This document shows, one piece after another, positions 13,778-16,655 of a stretch of 35,875 nucleotides of DNA (the first letter of the stretch is position 1; each line of letters opens with the position of its first letter). Position numbers and translations under genes: made by a program. Where the stretch lies: NCBI GenBank assembly GCA_010015585.1, contig ML975175.1. The stretch is one strand, 5' to 3'. The notes below the pieces were generated by a model. It was not told the origin of the DNA and searched no databases. It saw only the letters and a list, made by a program, of their open reading frames with translations. The DNA comes from Eremomyces bilateralis CBS 781.70 (lineage: Eukaryota).

Positions 13778-13925
13778 CCAATCAGAGCCCTTTGATTCAC
13801 ATCACGTGAACAACGACCAGGCATCAGGTCGGGGCATCCAGGCATCCAACCAGGCACCAAACCAGGCATCAAACCAGGCATCAAACCAGGCAGCAGTGCC
13901 AATCACGTGATAGTTATCACACGTG
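13778..13925. promoter_or_regulatory. Divergent RPR2/SUB2 promoter with CCAAT boxes, three CACGTG E-boxes and a 12-bp tandem repeat
   Basis: CCAAT 13778 and 13899; TCACGTGA 13802-13809 and 13903-13910; CACGTG 13920-13925; CCAGGCA-containing 12-mers at 13838, 13850, 13862, 13874, 13886. Confidence 0.55.
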
Positions 13926-14311: not shown

Positions 14312-16316
14312 ATGGCTCCCGAACACGAAGAAGATCTCATCGATTACTCCGACGACGAGATCGCCAACGAAGCCGCCCCCGCGCGCACTGCAGGAGCCGC
14401 CAACGGCGCCGCTGCCGAAAAGAAAGGCGATCTCACCGTCACCGGAGCTGGAGCAGACAAGAAGGGCAGTTATGTCGGAATCCACTCCACCGGTTTCCGC
14501 GACTTTTTGTTGAAGCCGGAGCTCCTTCGAGCCATCACCGACTGCGGATTCGAGCATCCATCCGAGGGTTAGTCATGAAATCAATCATTTTCCTCCCCAC
14601 AACATCAAGAAGCAAGATCCGCATCGAGGATGTCACGAACACTCCAAGATTCGTGCCGCGTCCGTCCATCTCAATAGCAAGCAAGGATTAGAAGGTGCAT
14701 ATCAATGTCGTCCACGAGTTGGGAACTCAGCCGTCATGGGTGGCAAATGGTGGTTTTGCGAGCGGAGCCTCAGAGGCCGGTATTAGCTGCTGCTAGTTCG
14801 GTTTGGATGATGGCTGCCTGATATGAATTCTGGTCGTGTCTCAGACAGCGTGGCTGGGTTCTTCCCGCCGGCAACTGGCAAGATGACCTTGCTCTACTGA
14901 GCTGCAAGGATCCAAGGCGGGTTGCGGTCGCGATATGGCGCCGCACTTCACCTTGTGCGTTCAAGCGCACCGCACACGCTACAAGATTTTCAACGATATG
15001 GACGCTTGAGATGAATGGACGCGGCTTCGACTCACTTTGCATCGCTTTCTTCGAACGACCGTTTCTAACTTCTCGGTTGCGCATTACAGTCCAGCAAGTT
15101 TGCATTCCGCAAGCGATCCTTGGGACCGATGTCCTTTGCCAGGCGAAATCCGGTCTCGGTAAGACCGCCGTCTTCGTTCTAGCCACCCTCCAACAGATCG
15201 AACCGGTCGATGGCGAATGCTCTGTCCTCGTCATGTGCCACACTCGCGAGCTTGCATACCAAATCAAGAACGAGTATGCCCGCTTTTCCAAGTACATGCC
15301 AACTGTCAAAACCCATGTCTTCTACGGAGGCACCCCCATGCAGAAGGATGTGGAGATTCTCAAGAACAAGGAGACCCATCCTCACATCATTGTCGGAACT
15401 CCTGGCCGTCTGAACGCTTTGGTTCGGGACAAGCATCTCCAGCTCCGTAGTGTTCAACGCTTTGTCCTTGACGAGTGCGACAAGATGCTCGATCAAATCG
15501 GTATGTGTCACCGCACTTTATCCAAGACTCCGTTCTCACCAAATGTACAGACATGCGCCGCGACGTCCAGGAAATCTTCCGCGCCACGCCGACACAGAAG
15601 CAGGTGATGATGTTCTCCGCCACCTTGTCTCAAGAGACTCGCCCGATCTGCAAGAAGTTCATGCAGAACCCTCTCGAGATCTATGTGGATGACGAGACCA
15701 AGCTTACCCTACACGGTCTCCAGCAATACTACATCCAATTGTCGGAGCAGGAGAAGAACCGAAAGCTGAACGATCTCCTTGATACCCTAGAGTTCAACCA
15801 AGTCATCATCTTCGTCAAGAGCACTGGTCGTGCAACTGCACTCGACAATCTGCTCCGGGACTGCAATTTCCCCAGCATTGCGGTCCATTCCGGCGTCAGC
15901 CAAGAGGAGCGGTACGTCTTAAGCAAAATCCAACCATCGAACTGAGCTAATACAACCCTAGTATCAAGCGCTACAAGGAATTCAAAGAGTTCAACAAGCG
16001 CATTTGCGTCGCCACCGACGTCTTCGGCCGTGGCATCGACATCGAGCGCATCAACCTGGCAATCAACTACGATCTTCCTTCCGATGCCGATTCCTACCTT
16101 CACCGCGTCGGACGTGCTGGTCGTTTCGGGACCAAGGGGCTCAGTATCTCCTTTGTCAGCAGCGAACAGGATCAAGAGGTGCTTAAATCGATCGAGAAGC
16201 GGTTCGAAGTTGCCCTTCCGTAAGCATACCGATTCTGTGTCTGAGAGTTGAACTAACCTGCTCCCAGGGAGTTCCCCGCCGAGGGCATTGACGCCAGCAC
16301 CTACATGGCAAACTAA
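14312..16316 (+). CDS. SUB2: DECD-box RNA helicase UAP56/Sub2; exons 14312-14567, 15090-15500, 15551-15911, 15962-16219, 16268-16316
   Basis: [82 protein letters not shown]; all junctions GT-AG and in frame. Confidence 0.97.
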
Positions 16317-16655
16317 GCGTCAAGTCGGGGTGATGGATACAAGTGTTATACCGTTGCAGTGGACACCTTTCTCAACGGAAGCGATGGTCAAGGATGGAGT
16401 CTTGCAGGGGATAATTTGATTTGTGTAACGGAGAATTCGCTCAAAAGAACGGGTCTACTTCAGTCATTCGGGTTCATACGGTTTCTCTAATCAACACTAG
16501 CTGAGGCGCAATCACTCAGAACGTCAGTAGATTACGAAACAATGTCAGGTCTTTGCTCTCTATCGTTGACTCCTGTGGCCCAAACTCTCCAACTCTCCAC
16601 TCCTGGGCGTTTGTCCCTCCGACCTCGAGAGCGGATGGTGCACAGAACCTCAATG

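Follow-up and report, generated by a model that had tools for sequence, protein, structure and literature searches.

Why does the SUB2 gene of Eremomyces bilateralis CBS 781.70 carry a first intron about ten times longer than its other introns, and what might that intron do? We analyzed a window of 35,875 nucleotides (assembly GCA_010015585.1, contig ML975175.1), in which SUB2/UAP56 lies on the plus strand, as do all SUB2 features given below. Five coding exons encode a Sub2 protein of 444 amino acids: exon 1 (14312-14567) runs from the methionine to the residues HPSE and is interrupted in phase 1, and exons 2 to 5 (15090-15500, 15551-15911, 15962-16219 and 16268-16317) are defined by spliced joints, by a profile match of exon 2 to PF00270 and by Sub2 homologs. 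The closest well-matching named homolog of exon 2 is that of Myriangium duriaei (92% identity), and the protein groups with Dothideomycete, Lecanoromycete and Eurotiomycete rows in a tree with no starred set. Introns 2 to 4 are short and ordinary (50, 50 and 48 nt). Intron 1, as originally predicted, spans 14568-15089 from GT to AG and is 522 nt long.

Assembled contigs of a single run (X1), presumed to derive from RNA, agree with this structure, with GT..AG joints at each of the four introns. X1 also contains the intron-keeping form. The spliced intron-1 joint has a depth of 1998 and a contig that spans the intron and reaches into both exons has a depth of 814, so that the intron-keeping share is about 29% of the junction signal in X1 (814 of 1998 + 814). 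An adjoining contig has a depth of 136, which sets a ceiling on DNA background. The exon-1 end, at 2940, is close to the sum of the two forms, which fits retained pre-mRNA and not free intronic RNA. Introns 2 to 4 are without cover in X1, where assembly may have lost short retained introns. A cassette or poison exon using the GTGCGT at 14955 was also considered and rejected, as it has no joint in X1 and is not conserved.

The original prediction saw in intron 1 a hairpin-packed, structured regulatory RNA, or else the host of a non-coding RNA. The letters of the named hairpins are present where it placed them, among them a 10-bp stem (14728-14737 with 14807-14816) that includes one G-U pair, but the packing does not exceed chance. 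The intron folds with a z-score of only -0.73, and 24 of 100 shuffles fold equally well; the reverse strand gives -1.54, and the median over the 27 orthologous introns described below is -1.3 (12 shuffles each). Hairpins of 4 bp number 29 versus 21.6 +/- 5.6 in shuffled sequence (17 of 150 shuffles reach 29), and those of 6 bp number 10 versus 6.9 (38 of 150 reach 10). The 10-bp stem has a pair probability of 0.13, and 21% of 150 shuffles contain its equal (no more than one G-U pair, loop of up to 120 nt). Low ensemble pair probabilities were obtained for the hairpins beginning GCAAA (0.14), GCCT (0.00) and GGCTGGG (0.07), and higher ones for TAGC (0.99), CCTTGC (0.6-0.8), CAAGG (0.4-0.97), TGCGG (0.9-0.99) and GTGCGT (0.5-0.9). 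Those at 14887-14970 are well populated in the predicted ensemble, and the cluster at 14880-14959 ranks first among 75 local windows (z = -3.4, 40 shuffles). Even so, 12-mers from the named stems match at 10 or more of 12 positions in just zero to two of 26 orthologous introns; judged by this comparison, these hairpins are species-specific.

To obtain the orthologs, we retrieved at least 118 loci with a pattern for the exon 1/intron junction and selected those with a complete intron and, after it, an exon 2 of ascomycete type, which left 29 distinct loci including the window (L013 was omitted as a duplicate). Among the matches listed, 28 of the 29 have a long intron 1 (423-697 nt); the other is a yeast intron of 79 nt. 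Setting aside L047, a near copy of L017, gave 27 long introns for comparison, assigned by best hit and tree to Dothideo-, Sordario-, Eurotio-, Lecanoro-, Leotio- and Pezizomycetes and one yeast lineage; L003, being too short, is absent from the tree, and the placement of L054 and L072 is unsure. The controls were 51 SUB2 introns (46-90 nt) located further downstream in these loci. A further 54 complete introns at the intron-1 position, nearly all from other eukaryotes, have a median length of 206 nt, and three of them begin GTYAGT (among the matches listed). Because related rows share ancestry, p-values across orthologs overstate independence. In the yeast lineage (L009), SUB2 has lost its other introns and kept a 553-nt intron 1 that begins GTTAGT and holds long stems (z = -7.3), in contrast to the canonical 79-nt intron 1 of L012.

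The proposal of a structured cis-regulatory element in this intron is supported, not by the named hairpins but by atypical splice signals, an early stop and a long-range helix that had been overlooked, which we call P1. Its 5' arm (14655-14674; core 14660-14671, predicted extension 14651-14678) pairs with a 3' arm at 15006-15025 (core 15009-15020, extension 15004-15030). The 12-bp core is GUCCGUCCAUCU/AGAUGGACGGAC, with one G-U pair and one C-A mismatch in this genome. P1 tops the inverted-repeat list for 3.5 kb, scores 43 in the window versus a shuffle maximum of 35, and is predicted to extend over 20 bp, with core pair probabilities of about 1.0 except at one mismatch.

Both arms are conserved. 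Aligned to one another, the long introns agree little overall (mean column identity 26%); conservation is concentrated in the donor, the branch site and two internal blocks. These blocks, GTCCGTCCATCT and AGATGGACGGAC, are mutual reverse complements. Matches to both arms at 10 or more of 12 positions occur in 21 of the 27 introns, from five classes (among the matches listed). The 5' arm alone reaches this level in 20 of the 26 orthologous introns, unlike the stems named earlier, and is also present in 14 of 17 incomplete loci, of which some nearly duplicate full loci. An unbiased search for each intron's best ungapped long-range helix, judged by reading its output, returned P1 or a variant for 23 of the 27; the exceptions were L028, where the P1 extension was found, and L009, L059 and L064, where other helices were. 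L059 nevertheless retains P1 at a pair probability of 0.98. Among the 27, L064 and L009 have no clear P1; in the yeast-like L009, a 22-bp stem of different sequence ends 61 nt before the 3' end of the intron. The best long-range helix exceeds all 25 shuffles in 17 of the 27 introns. A clamp helix is conserved across classes of filamentous ascomycetes, and possibly in the yeast lineage too. Of 120 Sub2 proteins in the database, about a dozen whose gene models run through the end of the intron appear on reading to carry the translated 3' arm (MDGR, RWTD and the like), which suggests a wider range for P1.

Do the arms act as RNA? They could instead be two inverted DNA motifs that form no RNA helix, and two tests leave room for that reading: only 8 of 21 introns fold better on the sense strand, and G-U outnumbers A-C among core changes by 6 to 2 (p = 0.29), neither result being significant. 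The flanks of the core, which differ between lineages, provide the stronger evidence for pairing. With the core held fixed in 18 representatives, flanks pair with their own partner at -38.8 kcal/mol versus -34.5 kcal/mol when partners are permuted, and none of 20,000 permutations did as well; shuffling each P1's own flanks gives -31.6 kcal/mol versus the native -38.8, a value reached in 0 of 200 shuffles. Changes on both sides of the helix also exist: core changes comprise six that keep a G-U pair, two that give A-C, five on both sides (four of these at core positions 11-12) and three that break a pair. Since the core is mostly invariant, it offers little covariation. The spacing of P1 is, moreover, tied to the splice sites, and we regard the DNA-motif reading as extremely improbable. 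RNAalifold predicted zero pairs on the gap-rich ortholog alignment, and duplex energies between wide end windows were noisy (16 of 27 introns at z < -2). P1 is a real and old cis-element.

The domain enclosed by P1 (14675-15005) contains the hairpins named earlier, with the best local fold at 14880-14959, and its sequence is not conserved across classes. A clade-restricted inner architecture occurs in L017, L018, L078, L069, L080, L035, L019, L060, L030, L079 and L059 and has no clear counterpart in the window. It features a hairpin whose loop measures 7 nt (71.9% paired; 1 of 500 shuffles). This pattern, defined after seeing the data, is found in 17 of the 27 introns versus 9.8 expected; a subset of the clade adds inner helices GGAAGUCUC/GAGACUUCC and GCAGGCGG/CCGCCUGC. 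Such recurring inner elements, and the closure by P1 of a 290-500 nt domain about 70 nt upstream of the 3' splice site, are what one might expect if P1 were the terminal stem of a hosted or stable intronic non-coding RNA. We consider this very improbable. Nothing in the window or in 18 orthologous loci reached the Rfam gathering score (a single chance match had an E-value of 2.7), and an exact C box occurs in only 3 of the 27 introns, at unrelated places, with no conserved C/D boxes; H/ACA RNAs were covered through Rfam alone. The interior cannot be aligned across classes, and the X1 depths (2940 at exon 1, near 1998 spliced plus 814 intronic) fit an intron kept within the transcript.

The splice signals of intron 1 are both fixed and atypical. 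The donor, GTTAGTCA (14568-14575), has a pyrimidine at +3, and the form GTYAGT occurs in 26 of the 27 orthologs versus 3 of the 51 control introns (among the matches listed); in Fusarium, 10% of 2022 introns have a +3 pyrimidine (PMC5677156). The branch site, TCTAAC (15064-15069), has a T where other introns carry a purine and is predicted to be unpaired (probability > 0.9); TCTRAY, with T before the CTRAY core, is found in 23 of the 27 versus 5 of the 51 controls (among the matches listed). Branch site and acceptor (TACAG, 15085-15089, confirmed by the X1 joint) are 22 nt apart in intron 1 versus 13 nt in controls. That these signals are weak we can only infer, because by plain count their complementarity to U1 and U2 is not significantly lower than in controls (p = 0.45 and 0.08). 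Direct pairing between donor and branch site (GTYAG with CTRAC) was considered and discarded, as the two motifs do not co-vary.

The same donor encodes a stop. If the intron is retained, translation meets an in-frame TAG at 14570-14572, which results from the T at +3, and then a TGA at 14576-14578. Among the matches listed, 24 of the 27 orthologs have their first stop at codon 2 or 4, and 6 of the 8 with C at +3 have a TAA at codon 4. The end of exon 1 (14552-14567) is also under constraint at the nucleotide level: over orthologs, which are phylogenetically related rows, His is CAT in 37 of 37, Ser is TCG in 26 of 37 and Glu is GAG in 36 of 37, versus 26 of 80, 16 of 73 and 131 of 184 for the same codons in exon 2 (this genome has CAT, TCC and GAG). 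Just past the donor lies a C/U-rich tract ending in AG (14588-14609) that resembles a decoy 3' splice site. Such a tract, typically 20-40 nt past the donor, occurs in 26 of 37 orthologs versus 9.5 in shuffles, with the pattern set after seeing the data; no joint to this early AG was seen in X1. Three further candidates were rejected: concealment of the donor by the C-rich tract (0.605 versus 0.561 shuffled, reached by 8 of 40 shuffles), pairing of the P1 3' arm with the exon end (merely -7 to -12 kcal/mol in six cases tested), and a translational restart from the 3'-arm ATG (of 23 cases, 12 have it in frame and 6 have it open; the peptide is not conserved).

The arrangement of P1 recalls the zipper stems of long Saccharomyces cerevisiae introns such as RPS17B (PMC2536676; PMC12350175), in which one helix likewise bridges a segment downstream of the donor and a segment upstream of the branch site. 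The definition given by Rangan 2025 asks for a high-confidence stem of 6 bp or more between donor and branch point, and P1 is predicted to have 20 bp. Its linker, 87 + 43 = 130 nt (about 121 nt with the bulged extension), lies outside the 42-85 nt range of that definition; measured on the ungapped helix, the linker is at most 85 nt in 3 of 23 orthologs and longer in 20. The autoregulated RPL7B pre-mRNA has a zipper stem that serves as an enhancer that can be switched off, together with a nonconsensus branch point (PMC12311795). Both RPL7B and SUB2 place a zipper-type stem and a nonconsensus branch site in a first intron; in SUB2, however, the zipper itself is conserved, the host is a helicase gene, and no conserved mutually exclusive fold was found. 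When P1 was penalized and the introns refolded, the arms found different partners in each of 21 introns, with no conserved alternative. Because its linker exceeds 85 nt and it has no conserved competing fold, we describe P1 as zipper-like and do not assign it to the zipper-stem or RPL7B type.

P1 could simply be a constitutive aid to the splicing of a long intron, a plain zipper stem with no feedback. It lies near both intron ends in most orthologs, and 32 of 88 long yeast introns carry zipper stems (PMC12350175). A plain zipper would leave unexplained the lasting length of the intron, the fixed atypical donor, branch site and exon-end codons, and the retention of the core sequence across five classes, given that the yeast stems, in a genus-level set, are just 20-30% conserved (PMC12350175). 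We judge it unlikely.

The reading we prefer, although we give it only even credence, is that intron 1 is a tuned, partly retained, stop-carrying intron, with P1 as a zipper-like splicing enhancer within a negative feedback loop of Sub2/TREX. An atypical donor and branch site at ten times the normal intron length would splice poorly. P1, if it forms in vivo, would loop out 290-500 nt and reduce the donor-branch linker to about 100 nt (130 here), thereby enhancing splicing; on this model it probably sets the spliced share of the SUB2 message. Intron-keeping transcripts would hit a stop within two to four codons, yield no helicase and be degraded. The spliced share would most likely follow the level of Sub2/TREX: excess Sub2 might open or remodel P1, or export the slow-splicing pre-mRNA unspliced, and so close a negative loop.

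The helicase gene DBP2 autoregulates through its own intron, and the anatomy of SUB2 intron 1 (long, with atypical signals, an early stop and, in X1, partial retention) matches that of autoregulated introns in RNA-processing genes. YRA1 encodes a TREX partner of Sub2 that is held down through slow splicing and export (PMC11585973, PMC2864733, PMC2911113); it shares with SUB2 a long intron and a divergent branch site, and its unspliced RNA is removed, but its pre-mRNA escapes NMD, uses Edc3 and contains five modules. The fungal srp2/SRSF5 gene, like SUB2 an RNA-processing gene of filamentous fungi, has a conserved long retained intron with stops; the sequence of that intron is reportedly not notably conserved (PMC4379411), whereas SUB2 has a sequence-conserved helix. 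SUB2 intron 1 combines the features of the YRA1 and srp2 type, namely a long conserved intron, a retained form (seen in X1) and an early stop. In yeast, overexpression of Sub2 inhibits growth and export (PMC4818039), which speaks for negative feedback.

A different regulator might instead act through P1, be it Yra1/THO/Mex67, a protein that reads duplexes or C-rich tracts, or stress. The invariant core sequence suggests recognition, the Neurospora srp2 intron is long, retained and targeted to NMD (PMC4379411), and the YRA1 intron modules work with Mex67. Among the precedents considered, self-regulation predominates, and we hold this alternative to be distinctly unlikely. A positive dependence, in which Sub2 is needed to splice its own intron 1, seems quite improbable, even though Sub2 aids U2 loading at the branch site (PMC11585973) and the branch site here is atypical. 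Its model is human: the orthologous proteins DDX39A and DDX39B control intron retention in their own transcripts, their depletion raising retention of intron 6 (PMC11317157). That case concerns a different, later intron, acts in the positive direction and has no helix described in the text consulted, and a positive loop would give no guard against harmful Sub2 excess.

Returning to negative feedback, a more specific version would make P1 itself the direct substrate and sensor of Sub2/UAP56: Sub2 would open P1, the intron would be retained, the donor stop would silence the message, and the level of the TREX helicase would be held. We offer this tentatively and consider it doubtful, though precedent makes plausible the original suggestion that Sub2 senses or unwinds an intronic element. 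The DEAD motif of plant DRH1/RH46 transcripts is a conserved RNA helix by which a helicase pre-mRNA senses its own helicase (bioRxiv 10.64898/2026.01.23.701338), and could serve as a model for a helicase-sensing loop. It belongs to another helicase subfamily and is a local stem-loop that masks an alternative 3' splice site; P1, by contrast, is a long-range clamp associated with intron retention, with no alternative site seen. An AG does occur within the P1 3' arm, preceded by no conserved branch site that we could see, and X1 contains no alternative joint.

We found no description of the P1 element in the literature searched and no Rfam match. Two screens for structured RNAs in fungi, PMC8216456 and PMC5640933, contain no mention of SUB2, UAP56 or a helicase in their main texts. 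The absence of P1 from these main texts and from Rfam suggests that such screens overlook long-range clamps whose interiors vary. Sub2/UAP56 has a central part in mRNA export and in recognition of the branch site, and its excess harms yeast cells, yet the literature searched offered no explanation of how its level is set in fungi. P1 and the fixed atypical splice signals form a compact element, with two 12-nt arms, that can be tested directly. Should Sub2 indeed sense P1, an enzyme usually considered sequence-blind would have a natural RNA target that is defined by sequence.

SUB2 intron 1 is also, to judge from protein sequences, often mis-annotated in databases. Of 120 Sub2 database proteins, 33 do not have the normal HPSE-VQQ junction, and most of these read through intron sequence; they include P0007, P0014, P0022, P0023, P0031, P0036, P0037, P0092 and P0099.

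Around SUB2 in the window lie an isocitrate-lyase-family gene (PF00463; 11000-12932, plus strand), a divergently oriented gene for an Rpr2/Rpp21 RNase P subunit (PF04032; 13165-13662, minus strand) and a DUF4246 gene in overlapping frames (PF14033; 16659-17488, minus strand). Between the Rpr2-like gene and SUB2, at 13816-13897, a 12-nt unit (CCAGGCATCAAA-like) is repeated head to tail about five times. Three TCACGTGA palindromes, near 13803, 13905 and 13919, flank this array; the repeats and palindromes are possibly promoter elements.
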